From positions 83,329,014 to 83,393,013 of the forward strand of contig NC_086376.1 in assembly GCF_036588685.1 (NCBI RefSeq): a stretch of 64,000 bases of DNA. Reading direction: 5' to 3'. This stretch comes from Mytilus trossulus. Taxonomy: Eukaryota. The translations under genes were made by a program, and so were the position numbers. The notes beneath the pieces were generated by a model, which did not search any database, was not told where the DNA came from, and saw only the letters and a list, made by a program, of their open reading frames with translations. Below, one piece after another: positions 1-64,000 of the stretch (its first letter is position 1; each line of letters starts with the position of its first letter).

Positions 1-1666
1 TAACAATACAAAAAGAGGTCCGCAATAAGTGGTGCACAGTTAGTCCCCATTGGAATTCCGATACCCCCAAAGCGAACAAAAATGTTATCTAGTAAAAATT
101 CAAGGGCATATATAGTATCAAAGCATGTCCAATTAACATAGTTTTTTTGTTTATTGCTACTAAAAAATGACCTAAAAAAGTTTGAACATATATATTCACA
201 TTCTGATTTTTTGAATGCCCATTTAATTAGGTGTGTGATTTTTTTCTTAATGAGAATGTGAGGCAATGTGGTATACAGGGTAGAAAAATCAAAACTTTGA
301 ACAGATTCAAAATCACCAATATAAGCATGCAATTTATCAAGTACTTCCAACGAGTTCTTGACACTCCAAAAGTAATTTATTCCACTATTTTCGAAGGCCT
401 TATTTGAACAATTTATTATAAGGTTTTTAATTGTACCAAGTGTGCTGGTAAGAATAATAGACAATTTAGTAGTTGAACAATGGCTTGAAGACGAAATAAA
501 TCTATATTTGTAAGGGGTTTTGTGTCCGTCTCATTTGGACTCAGATGGATAGTTCTGTTATTTGCATTCGTACATGTACCACATCTCTTTATATTATAAT
601 TATAAGTTATCTGAGGGTTTCTTATCGACCAGTGGTATAAAGCAAACATTGTGTAAAAACTCAATAAATAAGAGTCATTTGTTGCCCCCCCCCCCCTCCT
701 TTCCCCCATCTGAAATTGCATATACTGTCATTTCCCCCTTCTTTTCAATAATGTTAATCGCCTGATTATCTCGCAGAGAAATGTCCTTCACCATGTTATA
801 GGTTCTTACACATATCCAATAATTATCCAATAATAAAGAATTTTGGTTCTTTTAACATATTTGTATACGACACAATTGTTTGGCAGTCCTATTTGGGCTC
901 CATTGTCTGATTTTGAATATAAAGATCTGAAAATTGGGACACTATTGCAGTTTTTCCTTCAATTAAGAGGTTTGAAGTTTTTTTAGCAGAAACAAAAGAC
1001 AAAAATATGAAGTATCACAGATATCTGCATGATAGACTTATGTCTTTTAACGTCTTGATTATGTTGTGGGATAAATCACTTATAAATTGTTTTTTTTTTA
1101 ATTTAATTAGTCAAACTTGTAGCCTTATCATAAATCTTCCTTTATCCGCTTGAGCTTTTTCCTTTGTAAATATTGATGAACAAAAGCAATTATGACACAT
1201 TCAATTCATTCATTGCTGTTTACCTACGCCAACTATAGCAAACACTTCGTGTATTTTTAGTAGAATTTGTTTAGAAGTCCGAAAAAAGAACAACCTGAAT
1301 TCAGCAATTGGACCAACATCTTTGAATTCCAAGTGACAATAGAGGGTTTTTAAAACACGATGTTCGCTTTGAACTTGTGCTGATATAGGTTAAAACTCTT
1401 TTCATGGCGACTTGCTCTTTTGTTTTTCCTTTTCAATGCATACACAAAATAATGAGATAAATGTTTTTTATGGATGTAATTGTGTAGACAGTTTTCAGTT
1501 CGAATTATACACGATCCCTTTTATAATAAAAGTCTTTCCTAGAAAAAAAAAGCATTTAAAGAAAAGTGTAAAATACTTCCGTTTCGGGTCTGAAATAGAA
1601 ATATTAAAATTTATATCAATCAGACTATCTTTTTAAATTTCTATATTGAAATTTTACAGACTAGTC

Positions 1667-10947: not shown

Positions 10948-13559
10948 AACCAGATGCTCCGCAGGGCGTAGCTTTATACAACCGCAGAGGTTGAACCCTG
11001 AACGGTTGGGGCAAGTATGGACATAACATTCAAGCTGGATTCAGCTCTAAATTTGGATTGTGATTAAATAGTTGACACAGCATAGGTTTCTGACACAGAA
11101 TGAATGTGTTCTAATGAAATTAAATTTTTTGTTTTCTCTTAGAGCAATTCACTATGCTGTTGAATATTATTCCTCTCAAAAAAATGTTTGAAGAAATTTT
11201 CTTTTTATTTATGAAATTTCAAATGAGAAAATTGAACCCATTTTTTTTAATCACATCCCCCTTTCCCTTATTCCAAAACTAATCTCAATTAAAATTTCTA
11301 ATGGAGTTTGCAACAATTACTACTCATTTAAATACATCATAAAATATTAAGATGTAAAAAAACTGCTTTTTTATCAGTTGGTAGTAAAAAGTGAATATAC
11401 ATTGTATATTGTATATATAACAAAGATTTAAGTTGATTCTGGACAAAGAAAGATAACTCCAAATAAAAAAAAATCTTACAATTAGATATTTCTTGCTTAC
11501 TATTCTGGACAAAGAAAGATAACTCTAATTAAAAACAAAATTGCTATTTCACAATATTTTGCAATAAGATATTTCTTGCCATTGCGCAATACTGTGCAAT
11601 TGAAAAGACTTGCTATTGCACAAAACTTAATATAATTATTTTAGATCCTGATTTGGACCAACTTGAAAACTGGGTCCATAATCAACCAGATGCTCCGCAG
11701 GGCGTAGCTTTATACGACCGCAGAGGTTGAACCCTGAACGGTTGGGGCAAGTATGGACACAACATTCAAGCTGGATTCCACTCTAAATTTGGATTGTGAT
11801 TAAATAGTTGACACAGCATAGGTTTCTGACACAGAATGAATGTATTCAAATGAACTTAAAATTTTTTGTTTTCTCTTAGAGCAATTCACTATGCTGTTGA
11901 ATATTAATCCTCTCAAAAAAATGTTTGAAGAAATTTTCTTTTTATTTATGAAATTTCAAATGAGAAAAATTGAACCCAATTTTTTATTCACATCCCCCTT
12001 TCCCTTATTCCAAAACTAATTTCAATTAAAATATTCTAATGGAGTTTGCAACAATTACTACTCATTTAAATACACCATAAAATATTAAGATGTAAAAAAA
12101 CTGCTTGTTATCACTGAATGGTAAAGATTATTTAAATTTACCAGTTGGTAGTAAAAAGTGAATATACATTGTATATTGTATATAACAAAGATTTAAGTTG
12201 ATTCTGGACAAAGAACGATAACTCCAATTAAAAAAAATTCTTGCAGATATTTCTTGCTTACTATACTGGACAAAGAAAGATAACTCTTAATTAAAAAAAA
12301 ATTTGCTATTTCACAATATTGTGAAATTAGATATTTCTTGCCATTGCACAATACTGTGCAATTGAAAAGACTTGCTATTGCACAATACTTAATATAATAA
12401 TTTTAGATCCTGATTTGGACCAACTTGAAAACTGGGCCCATAATCAAAAATCTAAGTACATGTTTAGATTCAGCATATCAAAGAGGCCCAAGAATTTAAT
12501 TTTTGTTAAAATCAAACTTAGTTTAATTTTGGACCCTTTGCACTTTAATTTAGACCAATTTTAAAACTGGGCCAAAAATTAAGAATCTACATACACAGTT
12601 AGATTTGGCATATCAAAGAACCCCAATTATTCAATTTTTGATGAAATCAAACAATGTTTAATTTTGGACCTCGATTTGGGCCAACTTGAAAACTGGGCCA
12701 ATAATCAAAAATCTAAGTACATTTTTAGATTCAGCATATCAAAGAACCCCAAGGTTTCAATTTTTGTTAAAATCAAACTAAGTTTAATTTTGGACCCTTT
12801 GGACCTTAATGTAGACCAATTTGAAAACGGGACCAAAAATTAAGAATATACATACACAGTTAGATTCTGCATATTAAAGAACCCCAATTATTCAATTTTG
12901 ATGAAATCAAGCAAAGTTTAATTTTGGACCCTTTGGGCCCCTTTTTCCTTAACTGTTGGGACCAAAACTCCCAAAATCAATACCAACCTTCCTTTTATAG
13001 TCATAAACCTTATGTTTAAATTTCATAGATTTCTATTTACTTATACTAACGCTATGGTGCGAAAACCAAGAAAAATGCTTATTTGGGTCCCTTTTTGGCC
13101 CCTTATTCCTAAACTGTTGGGACCGAAACTCCCAAAATCAATACCAACCTTCCTTTTGTGGTCATAAACATTGTGTTTAAATTTCATTGATTTCTATTCA
13201 CTTTAACTAAAGTTATTGTGCGAAAACCAAAAATAATGCTTATTTGGGCCCTTTTTTGGCCCCTAATTCCTAAACTGTTGAAACCAAAACTCCCAAAATC
13301 AATCCCAACCTTTCTTTTGTGGTCATAAACCTTGTGTCAAAATTTCATAGATTTCTATTAACTTAAACTAAAGTTATAGTGCGAAAACCAAGAAAATGCT
13401 TATTTGGGCCCTTTTTGGCCCCTAATTCCTAAAATGTTGGGACCAAAACTCCCAAAATCAATACCAGCCTTCCTTTTATGGTCATAAACCTTGTGTTAAA
13501 ATTTCATAGATTTCTATTCACTTTTACTAAAGTTAGAGTGCGAATACTAAAAGTATTCG

Positions 13560-13603
<44 letters not shown>

Positions 13604-14851
13604 CAACGTGATAGCAATATACGACGAAAATTTTTTCAAAATTTGCGGTCGTATAAAAATCTAAGTACATGTTTGGATTCAGCATATCAAAGAACCCCAA
13701 ATTATCAATTTTTGTTAAAATCAAACTAAGTTTAATTTTGGACCCTTTGGACTTTAATGTAGACCAATTTGAAAACAAGACCAAAAATGAGGAATCTACA
13801 TACACAGTTAGATTTGGCATATCAAAGAACCCCATTTATTCAATTTTTGATGAAATCAAACAAAGTTTAATTTTGGACCCCGATTTGGATCAACTTGAAA
13901 ACTGGGCCGATAATCAAGAATCTAAGTACATTTTTAGATTCAGCATATCAAAGAACCCAACCGATTAATTTTTTGTCAAAATCAAACGAAGTTTAATTTT
14001 GGACCCTTTGGACCTTAATGTAGACCAATTTGAAAACGGGACCAAAAGTTAAAAATCTACATACACAGTTAGATTCGGCATATCAAAGAACCCCATTTAT
14101 TCAATTTTGATGAAATCAAACAAAGTTTAATTTTGGACCTTTTGGGCCCCTTATTCCTTAACTGTTGGGATTAAAACTCCCAAAATCATTACCAACCTTC
14201 CTTTTATGGTCTTAACCTTGTGTTTCAATTTCAGAGATTTCTATTTACTTATACTAAAGTTATGGTGCGAAAACCAAGAAAATGTTTATTTGGGTCCCTT
14301 TTTGGCCCCTAATTCCTAAACTGTTCGGACCTAAACTCCCAAAATCAATACCAACCTTCCTTTTGTGGTCATAAACATTGTGTTCAAATTTCATTATTTT
14401 CTATTTACTGAAACTAAAGTTATTGTGCGAAAACCAAGAATAATGCTTATTTGGGCCCTTTTTTGGCCCCTAATTCCTACACTGTTGAAACCAAAACTCC
14501 CAAAATCAATCCCAACCTTTCTTTTGTGGTCATAAACCTTGTGTCAAAATTTCATAGATTTCTATTAACTTAAACTAAAGTTATAGTGCGAAAACCAAGA
14601 AAATGCTTATTTGGGCCCTTTTTGGCCCCTAATTCCTAAAATGTTGGGACCAAAACTCCCAAAATCAATACCAACCTTCCTTTTGTGGTCATAAACCTTG
14701 TGATAAAATTTTATAGATTTATATTCACTTTTACTAAAGTTAAAGTGCGAAAACTAAAAGTATTCGGACGACGACGACGACGACGACGACGACGCCAAAG
14801 TGATAGCAATATACGACGAAAATTTTTTCAAAATTTGCGGTCGTATAAAAA
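10948..14851 (+). mobile_element. Composite non-autonomous element, interpreted as Helitron/Helentron (HINE)-like. Its 5' module of about 740 bp occurs twice in tandem. The module is followed by an array of a 120-bp 'A' sub-repeat, an array of a 125-bp 'B' sub-repeat, a (GACGAC)n microsatellite and a hairpin tail. The whole 3' block (A sub-repeats, B sub-repeats, microsatellite and tail) is duplicated.
   Basis: The 5' start aaccagatgctccgcagggcgtagctttatacgaccgcag is conserved in three copies. The 3' tail ...(gacgac)n gccaacgtgatagcaatatacgacgaaaattttttcaaaatttgcggtcgtataaaaa contains an imperfect hairpin (atacgacg...cgtcgtat). The subterminal inverted 13-mer is TTTATACGACCGC. Confidence 0.5.
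13561..13603 (+). repeat. (GACGAC)n microsatellite inside the composite element.
   Basis: About 14 perfect GAC units. The same microsatellite recurs at 14767-14795 and 36594-36615. It also produces the poly-Arg and poly-Val artefact ORFs in the ORF track. Confidence 0.9.
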
Positions 14852-15100
14852 TCTGTTTGGAAAAATTTGATTTGAAAAGGACTATATACAATTTAAAATC
14901 AACTCAACATAATCATACCAGGTTATTATCATATTTTCAAAAAAATATTTGAAGAAAATAAAGTTGTTGAAAAGCAGGGAAAATCTCATTCATGACTTAA
15001 CATCAACAACACATTTCTTTTTGAGCTTTCACAACAATACTTGTTTCAACCTGCATGTAGATAAATTATAAAACAGCATGTACTTTGTATTAAGCTTTAC

Positions 15101-50220: not shown

Positions 50221-50355
50221 CTTTTTACCGATAAGAGCCATGACATGGTATACTGGCTCTGTGATATGTAGTTTTCTGATCAGCTGTTTCAGTGAAAAAG
50301 ATGTCTTCTCAATCTCTTCTTTCGATTCTTTATCATCATATATAACATCTGATAT
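50221..50355 (-). CDS. TEP1: TEP1-like exon 7, TROVE (ISDVIYDDKESKEEIEKTSFSLKQLIRKLHITEPVYHVMALIGKK).
   Basis: Matches Ro60 '...LLRLSHLKP...' region. cttag acceptor, AAG|gtaagt donor. Confidence 0.8.
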
Positions 50356-51085: not shown

Positions 51086-51339
51086 CTGTCTTTTCATCTT
51101 GGATTCTTCTTCCTCATCTGAAGAATCTGAAGAATCTGATGAAATGTCATCTGGCTGTGGGGGTACAAAACTGCCAAATCTAGCTCCCCTACCTCCTCTA
51201 GTAAAACCTCCTCTACCACGACCTCTACCTCCTCTGCCACCTCTACCGCCTCTCACAGCTGATCCATCATCTTCTTTCTCCTTATTTTTTCGTTCTTTCT
51301 TCTTTTTCTTCTTCCTAGAACTTTCTTTATTATACTTAG
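51086..51339 (-). CDS. TEP1: TEP1-like exon 6. A Lys-rich stretch is followed by an RGG box (RGGRGGRGGRGRGRGGFTRGGRGARFG) and an acidic Ser-rich stretch (DSSDSSDEEEE), all inserted within the TROVE region.
   Basis: tttcag acceptor, CAG|gtaatt donor. Phase links exon 5 (AKY...) to exon 7. Confidence 0.7.
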
Positions 51340-52090
51340 CTGAAAGTTGAATTCAGAAATAAATCTTTCTTGAAATACTCTATGCTCATTTTTAGAAGTT
51401 TAGGCATTACATGAATATTTGTCAAAATCCTTATATTGAGCATCGTGAAATTTAAACATGATTAATAGAACTTTATAAACTTAATGTATTTCAACAGGAT
51501 AACTAGACAGAAGCGGCCCCCTCTTTCCCCCACATTCCAAAGCACATAAATACAGAGAATTTGAAGAAATACAACAGAGCACTAATGTTACTAAGTGCTC
51601 TGTTGTATTTATTACTCTGTTTATTAATTAGTAATAATGGAGTTAATAGCACATATTTCATTGCTAGTACATTTTTGTACCAGTAGAAGTACCATTGAAA
51701 TATTCACAGCAATAGAAGTTTCTCTTCTCTTCATTCTTCTTTGTACTTAAGTTTAATACTTGGATGCCTTTAGCTCTAGAATAGACACTATCCAGCATTA
51801 ATATGAATGCCCTCTGTCTAACTATAAATAGCAATTTTCTCTAACAAAATATAGATTATCTCCTTTTTTTACCCAATTTTCAACCATCTGAAATAGACAG
51901 TTTATTCAAACAGTTTTAAATGTTCTAAACAGTCTAGCATACATGTACATGTGACATTTTAACTGTCAAACAAGATATAAGGCAGTCACTGAAATGGCCG
52001 TCTATTGCCATCAGAGTTCAAAAATTAATGTTCTGAAAATGTAACAGAAATTATGCAATATACATTCTAAAACCAAAATGCTTTTCTTAC

Positions 52091-52187
52091 CAAGCTGGTA
52101 TTCATCAAAGTCAGGAAATTTAGTCATCATAACTCTTCTTAGCGCTGAGGGTAATGCCCCTTGTGTCAAATGTCTGTCATGGAAAGC
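52091..52187 (-). CDS. TEP1: TEP1-like exon 5, TROVE (AFHDRHLTQGALPSALRRVMMTKFPDFDEYQL).
   Basis: Open frame, tag|G acceptor, TTG|gtaag donor, phase consistent. Confidence 0.8.
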
Positions 52188-53295
52188 CTAAAGAAATAAA
52201 ACACAAGACATGTATGTTAAACCCTGTGCACTATGAAACTGAAATATGATAAAACAGTTTCTCCAATTCTTACTCATTTTATCTCTTTTATTTTTTATTT
52301 AATCAACATATATGGCTTGTTTGTAATTGATCTCAATTCTTCATTGTTCTTAATTTGGATATATATGATTTAGGACATCAAATTATCAGCGAAACCCTCT
52401 TTTTAAATTTAAAAATTTAACTGTCTCAAGTTGATAAATATTGAATCACACTCGATGCAGTGGTAAAATCTATATTTATACACAGTTTATATAAATGTAC
52501 ATTTGAATTAAAACATCAGTGTACATGTTTTACTATCAATTTAATATCACAACAATATATGATATAATTTCCAAAATACAGATTAAATTGAAGTTTTGTA
52601 AATTCTTTATGGTTACGATCTACTAAATATTAGTTCAAGTTTATAAAAAAAACTTTCATGCATAGATAATTTCTGGCATTAACTCAGGCTTTGGAATCAA
52701 CATATCAAAGTTTTTGATTTGGTGTTTCAAGCATAAATTTTGTACTCCAAGTACTGAGTAAAGTTTTATGACTCCAGCCACAGGTCTCTTCTGGAGAGTT
52801 GTCTCGTTGGCAATTATATCACAATTTCTTGTTTTTGTACATCTTTTCTTTAATGGATTTCATTTATTTTTAAAAACCTTTCTTCTAACTCCATTGAACT
52901 CTTTAAATTTAGAATTTAGTGGCAAATTCAGGTGGAACTTAGAATTGGTTAAATGGATTTTTTGGTTTAACATTCTCAAAATTTCAATCCTGACAATAAC
53001 CCTACAATTTCAAACAATAGATCAGCCACTGTTTTCTTATGCAAGAGCATGTTTTGGTCAATCTTTAAGAGCAAACTGACAACAATTATCAATTAATTCT
53101 GTACTTAAAACATGTTCGAGTAGAACAATCAATAGCATCGACATACTTATTATTTAGATCAAATGCAACTGACAAAATAACAAAATTAAGCACCATGAAA
53201 ATAATTGAGTCCCTTGAGTTAATATTGCATCACAATACTGACATATCTGTGGTATTACCAAATTATCTCCCTTTGGTAACCATACCAGAACTAAC

Positions 53296-53457
53296 CTGAT
53301 ATATTTCAGCTACTTCTATCCAGTCTGATGGTAAACTTATAGAGGCACAGTAGTATTTCTTTAAGAATGGTCTGCACAAATCAATATTAGCTGCCATGGC
53401 TAACAGAAAGTTTGCTGTTGTTCTTATGTTTAGTTGTTTTCTGGTATATAGTGCAAC
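53296..53457 (-). CDS. TEP1: TEP1-like exon 4, TROVE (VALYTRKQLNIRTTANFLLAMAANIDLCRPFLKKYYCASISLPSDWIEVAEIYQ).
   Basis: Strong similarity to Ro60 'LAVYARKELNIRSTANF...'. Canonical splice sites. Confidence 0.85.
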
Positions 53458-63578: not shown

Positions 63579-63870
63579 GTAAGTTATTAGGGGTTAAGTT
63601 TTTTGCCCTAAGTTGGGGGATAAGTTTTAGAGTGTTTTAATTTCTTATGTCCTGAGTTGGAGGTAAGTTGGGGTGTTTAAATCTATTGTCCTGAATTGGG
63701 GGTACATGCAAGTTGAAGTAGGTTAATTATTTGCCTTGAGTTTGTTTAGTTCAGGGGGTTGAAACTTTAAACATAATATGTGAAATGTTAATAGGTGGGA
63801 AGTCATGATTTACAGTAGAAATACAGAAAGAGCAGAATTTTTGCTTAAAAAGAGTTTGTCTTATTTGCAG

Positions 63871-64000
63871 GTACCAAGTCTGAATGATACTCCACTGCAT
63901 ACCCTACAACCAAACTCTTTAGTAAGATTCAGATGTATGGTACAGGATATATATGATCCAGAATTCTACCTTGGACTCTATCAGGTGAAGGATTTAGAAA
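63871..64000 (+). CDS. MCMBP: MCMBP exon 3, running to the window edge ([38 protein letters not shown]...).
   Basis: Near-identical to human [38 protein letters not shown]. tttgcag acceptor. A possible donor lies at about 63982. Confidence 0.85.

Follow-up and report, generated by a model that had tools for sequence, protein, structure and literature searches.

An RGG box in the basic loop of the TROVE module of a Mytilus trossulus TEP1 ortholog

Mammalian TEP1 (TROVE1) binds vault and/or telomerase RNA and resides in vaults, and vault TEP1 is mostly cytoplasmic. RNA binding by its TROVE region shows limited sequence specificity. Three 2026 preprints report that the DUF4062 domain of TEP1 is a TIR-like NADase; the enzyme is reported to be active in vaults, and it has been suggested that RNA binding via TROVE/vWA may regulate it. 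There is no solved structure for the TEP1 TROVE module. The TROVE ring and vWA fold are known from Ro60 (TROVE2), from its relative Rsr and from a phage Ro60. Residues K170 and R174 of Ro60 are said, in work of Stein in 2005 and Fuchs in 2006, to lie in the central cavity and to have been mutated to abolish the binding of misfolded RNA. Ro60 H187, on the outer ring surface, is essential for direct Y RNA contact (PMC4030889), and an H187S mutant has been described (PMC11277228). In phage Ro60, the substitutions R163A, R169A, R173A, and R178A weaken binding of the Y-like RNA Yrl2, with R178 making a direct backbone contact (PMC12135203). Here, we describe a coding exon at positions 51086 to 51339 (minus strand) of a 64,000-nucleotide (nt) stretch of Mytilus trossulus DNA (contig NC_086376.1, positions 83,329,014 to 83,393,013 of the forward strand; hereafter the window, to which coordinates refer). 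The exon encodes an RGG box in a loop of the TROVE module of a TEP1 ortholog, between positions that align to RNA-contacting residues of solved TROVE proteins.

Assembled from splice sites and tblastn matches, the spliced TROVE region of the mussel gene comprises 556 residues and matches Pfam TROVE (PF05731) with an E value of 6.9e-108 (362 bits; cut-off, 23), in two stretches split by the loop. The vWA-like part lies on exons 46049-46233 and 45343-45492, which are 42 to 66% identical to homologs, and the profile of our alignment A1 pairs it with the vWA domain of Ro60. It is followed by DUF4062 (PF13271; E value, 1.1e-17; 64.5 bits; cut-off, 24.7), a predicted TIR-like NADase on exons 39411-39587 and 38890-39135, and by a STAND-type nucleoside triphosphatase (NTPase) with the P-loop GKPGTGKS, recognized by AAA_16 (37.5 bits; cut-off, 32.6) and NPHP3_N (28.1 bits; cut-off, 24.8); the NACHT model reached 21.5 bits, under its cut-off of 26.7. 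WD40 was matched in five stretches (E value, 2e-49), and TEP1 propeller models were matched weakly. This series of TROVE, vWA-like, DUF4062, STAND NTPase, and WD40 domains identifies the gene, as judged from its sequence, as a TEP1 ortholog. Vertebrate TEP1 has the same order (TROVE, vWA-like, DUF4062/TIR-like, STAND NTPase, WD40) and has the motifs QLAKYN, LKxLIRxLH, and LPFMAMLRNLRN in common with the mussel protein. The gene is not Ro60, which has about 530 residues and a short loop after K170-Y171; the mussel gene has a 101-residue loop and further DUF4062, NTPase, and WD40 exons.

The exon and its neighbors are as follows, with a slash marking splice junctions in the text and in the entries.
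51086-51339, minus strand: TEP1 coding exon of 254 nt, defined by splice sites and frame and found to encode A-K-Y-N-K-E, with which a TROVE helix ends, and the larger part of the 101-residue loop.
52091-52187, minus strand: upstream TROVE exon (exon 5), encoding AFHDRHLTQGALPSALRRVMMTKFPDFDEYQL and the first base of an Ala codon; donor G/gtaaga, phase 1.
50222-50355, minus strand: downstream TROVE exon (exon 7), encoding the acidic end of the loop, ISDVIYDDKESKEEIEKTS, and a helix, FSLKQLIRKLHITEPVYHVMALIGK, with K239 and H246.
51332-51337, minus strand: Lys-Tyr codons AAG TAT, matching phage Ro60 K158-Y159 and taken to match Xenopus Ro60 K170-Y171 by way of phage Ro60 and spacing.

The acceptor tttcag/CT at 51340/51339 is followed by the codons AAG TAT AAT AAA GAA, and the exon ends with AAA AGA CAG/gtaat, the donor lying at 51086/51085. 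Its length corresponds to 2 nt plus 84 codons, and the minus-strand translation of 51086-51337 is KYNKESSRKKKKKKERKNKEKEDDGSAVRGGRGGRGGRGRGRGGFTRGGRGARFGSFVPPQPDDISSDSSDSSDEEEESKMKRQ. Exon 5, which is 62 to 71% identical to homologs from Adineta, Branchiostoma, and Patella and to homolog P0009 (tblastn), ends in ...FPDFDEYQL plus a G; this G joins the incoming CT to form the Ala codon, so that the protein reads ...DEYQLAKYNKE.... Exon 7 follows ttcttag/ in phase 0 and begins with ISDVIYDDKESKEEIEKTSFSLKQLIRKLH (ISDVIYDD). The introns on either side of the exon measure about 730 to 750 nt. When exon 5 is joined straight to exon 7, the reading frame runs GAT ATC AGA TGT TAT ATA TGA and stops after 6 codons; because the frame is restored only with the exon present, its inclusion appears to be needed. 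In alignment A1, K133 is invariant and Y134 is kept in at least 90% of sequences. Splice sites and frame together mark 51086-51339 as a real, obligatory coding exon of the TEP1 ortholog. An open reading frame (ORF) at 52659-52859 was considered as an additional exon and dropped: exon B is spliced straight to exon 5, and the same holds for Patella (EIYQ/AFHD).

The 101-residue loop is made of three charge blocks, a Lys-rich block (+6), a tri-RGG box (+9), and an acidic Ser-rich block (-10), the last figure being the net charge of the final 41 residues.
51266-51328, minus strand: Lys-rich basic tract, KESSRKKKKKKERKNKEKEDD, with K-K/R-x-K/R matches resembling a nuclear localization signal (NLS).
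51173-51253, minus strand: tri-RGG or arginine-glycine (RG) box, RGGRGGRGGRGRGRGGFTRGGRGARFG, with 8 RG and 5 RGG within 27 residues.
51104-51151, minus strand: acidic Ser-rich tract, DDISSDSSDSSDEEEE, with CK2-type S-x-x-D/E sites.

Four K-K/R-x-K/R matches are present in the loop. Among RGG/RG motifs as defined by Thandapani et al. in 2013, the tri-RGG class has the pattern RGG(X0-4)RGG(X0-4)RGG, which the box matches with RGGRGGRGGRGRGRGG. The codons of the box are mixed (AGA, AGG, CGA, and CGT for Arg; GGT, GGA, and GGC for Gly), and the 9-bp repeats that Tandem Repeats Finder (TRF) detected in the DNA of the RGG and SDS tracts are weak. Ser/Asp (SD)-rich tracts similar to that of the mussel occur in Patella, Mya, Mizuhopecten, Solemya, P0009, P0010, P0031, and P0060. 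Across all six frames of the window, only two places hold at least 4 RG within 40 residues, 51086-51339 and 46906-47104, and both are in-frame exons of the TEP1 TROVE module; the RG density is therefore not due to chance. Like the boxes of RGG and glycine-arginine-rich (GAR) proteins such as nucleolin, fibrillarin, FUS, FMRP, and hnRNP U, the mussel box has the tri-RGG pattern, and the corresponding segment of a homolog is predicted to be disordered. In those proteins, the box forms a terminal tail or a linker beside RRM or KH domains, whereas here it sits in an internal loop of a folded helical-repeat ring. Nucleolin and Nopp140 also carry RGG or K-rich tracts alongside acidic Ser-rich CK2 tracts.

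These results bear on a first-pass annotation of the window. The three peptides that it quoted, Lys-rich, RG-rich, and acidic, all lie in the exon, and its statement that skipping this 254-nt exon would shift the frame is borne out by the early stop. It had placed the exon between two TROVE exons, which the flanks ...FPDFDEYQL and ISDVIYDD confirm, while AKY, which it assigned to the upstream exon, is encoded by 51086-51339 itself.

In order to place the loop on the TROVE fold, the module was compared with solved structures. Profile A1 matched phage phiLo Ro60 (9kop/9l5y; E value, 3e-33), Xenopus Ro60 (1yvp; E value, 4e-15), human Ro60 (9nen), and Deinococcus Rsr (2nvo). A single-sequence PDB search had returned only phage Ro60 and chance RGG matches such as SERBP1 and SmD1, and Ro60 was reached by profile. 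The structures 1yvp, 9nen, 2nvo, and 9kop have a TROVE ring and vWA fold, as the mussel protein is predicted to have, and the K-Y and K...H positions around the loop are kept in them, in or beside the RNA-binding surface. The relevant segment of Xenopus Ro60 reads V168-T-K170-Y-K-Q-R174-N-G-W-S-H-K180-D-L-L-R-L-S-H187, and the HMMER alignment pairs mussel K239/H246 directly with K180/H187. The phage segment reads K158-Y159-K-R-A-R163-R-V-V-S-Q-R169-L-A-I-R173-L-T-H176-P-R178, when numbered as the PDB chain index minus 9, with which all residues mutated in the published study fall on R or K. From the alignment to phage Ro60 and the spacing from the ALRK motif, we infer that mussel K133-Y134 corresponds to Ro60 K170-Y171. 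In phage Ro60, the loop site falls between R163/R164 and R169. The TEP1 loop would leave the ring directly behind the counterpart of R163 and come back directly ahead of that of R169, and it would thus be bracketed within a few residues by RNA-binding positions. The site differs greatly in length, with 5 residues in Ro60 (KQRNG), about 9 in phage Ro60 (KRARRVVSQ), and 101 in the mussel. Unlike mussel TEP1, Ro60, Rsr, and phage Ro60 lack an RG box, an acidic tract, and an NADase/STAND/WD40 extension.

An AlphaFold2 (AF2) model was available for P0001, an RG-bearing homolog that is 51% identical to the mussel module, built from a 72-sequence alignment. The TROVE core of this model has a predicted local distance difference test (pLDDT) score above 90, the RG box (residues 397 to 440) scores below 50, and helices are predicted again at the acidic end. 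The K-rich start of the loop extends the preceding helix (residues 372 to 389; pLDDT, 84 to 90). A Foldseek search with the model gave 7 PDB matches at an E value of 0.001 or less, all of them of the Ro60 family.

To see how the loop varies, about 290 TROVE proteins were gathered by two word-indexed searches and one exhaustive profile search. The homolog search was run without the low-complexity parts of the query; the full query was swamped by RGG and K-rich words. The loop was defined as the segment between the anchors Q-L-A-K-Y and x-L-K-x-L-I-R-x-L-H. In all eukaryotic TEP1-type proteins with both anchors, it measures 11 to 256 residues (median, 48), and the same site holds 5 to 6 residues in prokaryote-type TROVE proteins and 5 in Ro60. 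Among the 167 loops with 11 or more residues, 164 are positively charged over their initial 20 positions (mean charge, +6.0; typical start, N-K-E-K-x-x-K-K-K). The mussel loop is the longest plain loop in a 68-sequence alignment. Vertebrate TEP1 is basic at the same site too (sperm whale, NPRTHRAKRRPHRPPRPPKE...; sharks, NTRKQRCKSD...), while the vertebrate loops sampled measure 32 to 59 residues and have neither the RG/RGG box nor the SD-rich acidic tract that the mussel loop has. In P0021, P0023, P0063, and P0106, the same loop carries an insert of about 230 to 240 residues, which in P0021 matches Pfam Gal-bind_lectin (E value, 1.4e-5); with a galectin-like insert at this site, the loop can evidently host a whole folded domain. 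The survey indicates that a basic, insertion-tolerant loop is a conserved TEP1 trait and not an insert specific to the mussel genome.

The RG box itself, counted from at least 3 RG, has a patchier distribution. No RG box was found in the loop of four sharks, bowfin, sperm whale, amphioxus, and sea urchin, or in that of horseshoe crab, spiders, a centipede, a priapulid, a nematode, flukes, and Acanthamoeba. In the Patella vulgata locus (L001), an orthologous exon of 182 nt is entered in phase 1 and left in phase 0, as in the mussel; its acceptor, cag/CTAAGTATAATAAAGA, is identical to that of the mussel, and the intron positions match. Its blocks, AKYNKDSSKNKNKKEKQGSF RGRGRGRGGGRGRGRGGRGG VTIASTAKP SDSDSDSDDEEK, keep the order K-rich, RG, SD-rich. 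Mya arenaria (WAR22045.1) has an RG box at the same site, in a loop that reads ...SSGKKKRKKERLQKEQSGEAT RGGGRGRGRGASRGSRGGRGASRGARGG ... DSDTSSSESDSESDSDSDEE. The loops of Adineta steineri P0001 and its close relatives, presumably bdelloid rotifers, contain 7 to 9 RG, and in Adineta steineri the loop and both TROVE flanks lie within one uninterrupted exon; since this single exon is continuous with the conserved flanks, the rotifer box is not a splicing artefact. RG boxes also occur in the loops of two amoebozoan transcriptomes, Flamella aegyptia and Phalansterium solitarium, and in that of sequence P0042. Solemya velum has a vestige, ARGRGA, and in the Mizuhopecten yessoensis model the K-rich tract runs straight into DSDSSDSSDSDSEDE...KRQISNIVYDEKESE with no RG.

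The mussel loop has close counterparts in mollusc and rotifer TEP1 (Patella LOC130012329 with its adjoining model, Mya WAR22045.1, and Adineta steineri), which have the loop and the K-rich, RG, S/D-rich order as well. It differs from them in being the longest plain loop aligned; it differs from Mya, Mizuhopecten, and Solemya in having both RG boxes of the module at full strength (see below for the second) and from the rotifers in having flanking introns. Within the loop, the RG box alone reads as a lineage-variable addition. At the Patella locus (OW026350.2, 6001-17910), the annotation cuts TEP1 into two models right after the RG-box exon: LOC130012329, an "uncharacterized protein" of 427 residues, ends in ...SDSDSDSDDEEKK, and a 2213-residue model begins inside the next exon. 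This split is probably an annotation artefact at a low-complexity exon, although the 427-residue model may be a genuine short isoform.

The first-pass annotation had described an RGG box with an acidic Ser-rich segment in the TEP1 TROVE module, which is what we find, and had remarked that such a box is not a known feature of vertebrate TEP1, in agreement with its absence from this site in the sharks, bowfin, and sperm whale. Its picture of an insert in an otherwise compact domain does not hold: essentially all eukaryotic TEP1-type TROVE proteins have a basic hypervariable loop here, and the exon also encodes the K-Y of the TROVE core. Nor is the RG box specific to the mussel, given the boxes in Patella, Mya, rotifers, and two amoebozoans. 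The annotation had allowed that orthologs might show the segment to be a conserved part of TROVE, and this was found for the loop and its basic start and not for the RG box.

The second RG-dense exon of the window belongs to the linker that joins the TROVE ring to the vWA-like part.
46906-47104, minus strand: RG box 2 exon, (Q)KKIVQEAEIAAQYVALGIPQPSERARGRGRGRGRGRGRGRGGGADGEVQWWIEKRNKKKAEAGKA(K), with the RG run at 46974-47027, in the linker between TROVE ring and vWA.

Its product reads ...PQPSERA RGRGRGRGRGRGRGRGGG ADGEVQWWIEKRNKKK.... Patella (L001, 15972-16187), Mizuhopecten, and Solemya have homologs of box 2, with the same E-x-W-W-L-x-K-K-K motif after them. Amphioxus P0286 has a run of 10 RG at the box 2 position, and the amoebozoan Gocevia has a weaker one there; no RG box was seen in the ring-vWA linker of the vertebrates sampled. 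A second Branchiostoma model, P0008 (656 residues), ends in ...AAEWAGTWKRAWRRAWWWAWQG where P0286 (2718 residues) reads ...SGRGRGRGRGGGRGGGRGRGRGRGRRGG, and the shorter model might result from translation of the RG-box DNA in the wrong frame up to a premature stop. The numbers of RG in the two boxes are as follows.
Mussel window: box 1, 8; box 2, 8.
Patella: box 1, 8; box 2, about 7.
Mya: box 1, 9; box 2, 0.
Solemya: box 1, 2; box 2, 9.
Mizuhopecten: box 1, 0; box 2, 7.

Five of the six molluscs sampled have at least one RG box in the module, and the sole one with neither is represented by an Octopus model that is apparently mis-spliced at the loop site. By these counts, RG content is kept in the mollusc module while its position shifts, which would imply a function at the level of composition rather than a precise structural one.

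Collectively, the position and composition of the loop lead us to favor, with moderate confidence, a role as an auxiliary RNA-binding arm, electrostatic and of low specificity, next to the specific TROVE RNA surface. The Lys-rich block would probably form a helical extension of the TROVE helix, and this basic helix together with the probably disordered RGG box would make a flexible arm that cooperates with the specific surface. Such an arm could raise the capture of, and affinity for, small structured RNAs, for example, vault RNA or telomerase RNA. The acidic block, with its CK2-type phospho-acceptors, might fold back, mask the basic blocks, and tune binding; arginine methylation would be a second likely control. 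More speculatively, the arm could feed into NADase regulation. A flexible arm fits the limited sequence specificity reported for the TEP1 TROVE region. Several points weigh against this interpretation. The structural model is that of a homolog standing in for the mussel protein, and the residue-level placement relative to the RNA surface comes from sequence alignment, at 11 to 16% identity to Ro60 (Foldseek), rather than from coordinates. The loop is hypervariable in length and sequence, and most lineages sampled have no RG box; among the molluscs, box 1 is missing from Mizuhopecten and box 2 from Mya.

The same variability could reflect neutral low-complexity drift, in which a permissive surface site accumulates RG, K-rich, and SD-rich sequence by slippage of 9-bp units and merely tolerates it. 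This is a possible explanation that we take seriously without holding it to be the likely one. The range of 11 to 256 residues, the galectin-like domain hosted in some lineages, the absence of an RG box from most taxa and from loop 1 of Mizuhopecten, and the weak 9-bp repeats found by TRF are what drift would be expected to leave. However, drift does not readily account for a basic start kept in 164 of 167 loops or for a K-rich, RG, SD-rich order common to Patella, Mya, and the mussel and written in mixed codons instead of pure repeats. Also against drift are the one or two boxes kept in the module by five of six molluscs and the recurrence of RG boxes in the same loop of rotifers and amoebozoans.

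Nucleolin, Nopp140, fibrillarin, and other nucleolar proteins are characterized by K-rich NLS-like, RGG, and acidic-Ser blocks. With this composition, the loop might be a localization or condensate signal that sends TEP1 to the nucleus, the nucleolus, or ribonucleoprotein (RNP) granules, a reading that we consider unlikely. The four K-K/R-x-K/R matches, the tri-RGG, the CK2-type sites, and the +6/+9/-10 charge pattern are consistent with it, but the loop lies inside a folded RNA-binding ring, about 5 to 10 residues from RNA-contact positions, and is not a free tail; in addition, vault TEP1 is mainly cytoplasmic. The two roles are not exclusive, and a localization signal would be compatible with an RNA-binding arm.

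A further alternative is that the RG box is a facultative cassette, a cryptic in-frame intron (exitron) whose removal would give an RG-less, scallop-like isoform.
51155-51256, minus strand: hypothetical candidate exitron of 102 nt, in frame, GCT/GTGAGA...TTTTGTACCCCCACAG/, with acceptor CCCACAG.

The only GTRAG of the exon stands directly before the RG box (GCT/GTGAGA at 51256), and a pyrimidine-rich CAG acceptor ends at 51155, just past it, so that splicing would remove exactly VRGG...SFVPPQ. The 102 nt are a multiple of 3 and have the GT...AG ends expected of an exitron; elsewhere, such sites are rare, the coding exons of the gene holding 2 GTRAG and 1 acceptor-like site per 2172 nt. The Mizuhopecten protein passes from K-rich directly into SD-rich sequence, as the spliced form would. 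Against this, the pattern was noticed post hoc, the sites are not conserved in Patella, the neighboring introns are about 730 to 750 nt long, and RG-coding DNA is inherently AG- and GT-rich; we therefore regard the cassette as doubtful. Improbable, too, is the broader proposal that, in molluscs and some other lineages, the RNA-sensing TROVE module of the TEP1 NADase carries one or two RG boxes that can swap position and tune RNA capture, with mussel box 1 also acting as a switchable exitron cassette that yields RGG+ and RGG- isoforms. Finally, the idea that 51086-51339 is no exon, but an ORF that arose by chance or from the antisense strand, or a piece of a different gene, for which an 83-residue plus-strand ORF at 51099-51350 might speak, is highly improbable and is refuted as far as sequence evidence reaches: that ORF is the reverse complement of low-complexity coding sequence, whereas the exon on the minus strand is bounded by consensus splice sites, keeps the two conserved TROVE exons around it in frame, encodes the invariant K-Y, and has an orthologous exon in Patella.

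Several other features of the window and its homologs were recorded. The MIDAS-like motif of the vWA-like part (46049-46233, minus strand) is degenerate, reading FCDVGENM against the family consensus FCDVSGSM, and other animal TEP1 proteins are alike; because of this degeneracy, metal-dependent ligand binding by the TEP1 vWA may have been lost. An Rfam scan of the 64-kb window, which has a GC content of 31.6%, found no vault RNA and no other Rfam family. A Mytilus coruscus protein annotated as "LAMP1_2" (P0064) is a LAMP-like model that ends in a TEP1 TROVE exon 93% identical to window positions 53296-53457; it is apparently a chimeric annotation and suggests that a LAMP-family gene adjoins TEP1 in Mytilus. 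An array at 26675-27145 contains 3.9 copies, 99% identical, of a 122-bp unit that comprises the WD40-exon sequence ELHTFRGHANAITSVCFVGQSMLCSAGLDN and its flanks. This looks like a very recent tandem duplication within the TEP1 gene, of which at most one copy would be usable in frame since 122 bp is not divisible by 3. Long intronic arrays of related repeats at about 11100-14900 and 35300-36800 contain ORFs (...KSKYMFRFSISKNPK..SIFVKIKLSLILDPLD...) and runs of an R-coding or D-coding triplet, with poly-R at 13536-13835 and 14640-14867; the arrays resemble satellite DNA or sequence derived from transposons. A 176-residue open frame at 3-530 (minus strand) looks like a retroelement fragment, and one at the right edge, 63784-63999 (plus strand), is probably the start of a neighboring gene.

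In a full-text literature search, no paper joining TEP1 and RGG was found among the 12 matches listed of 50, and the TEP1 studies drawn on here neither resolve nor discuss the loop. What is already known is an ordinary TEP1 ortholog and a textbook RGG motif; what is new is the lineage-variable RGG elaboration of a conserved basic loop, together with the box in the linker. The element is still a low-complexity elaboration of a known protein and not a new system. For the TEP1 TROVE module, the survey adds that nearly all eukaryotic TEP1 sampled has a basic loop between what are predicted to be RNA-contacting ring residues and that in several lineages a true RGG box has arisen in this loop or in the linker that follows. 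The loop would thus provide a concrete, mutable element for studying RNA capture and its regulation, with a natural series of proteins that have both boxes, one, or none.

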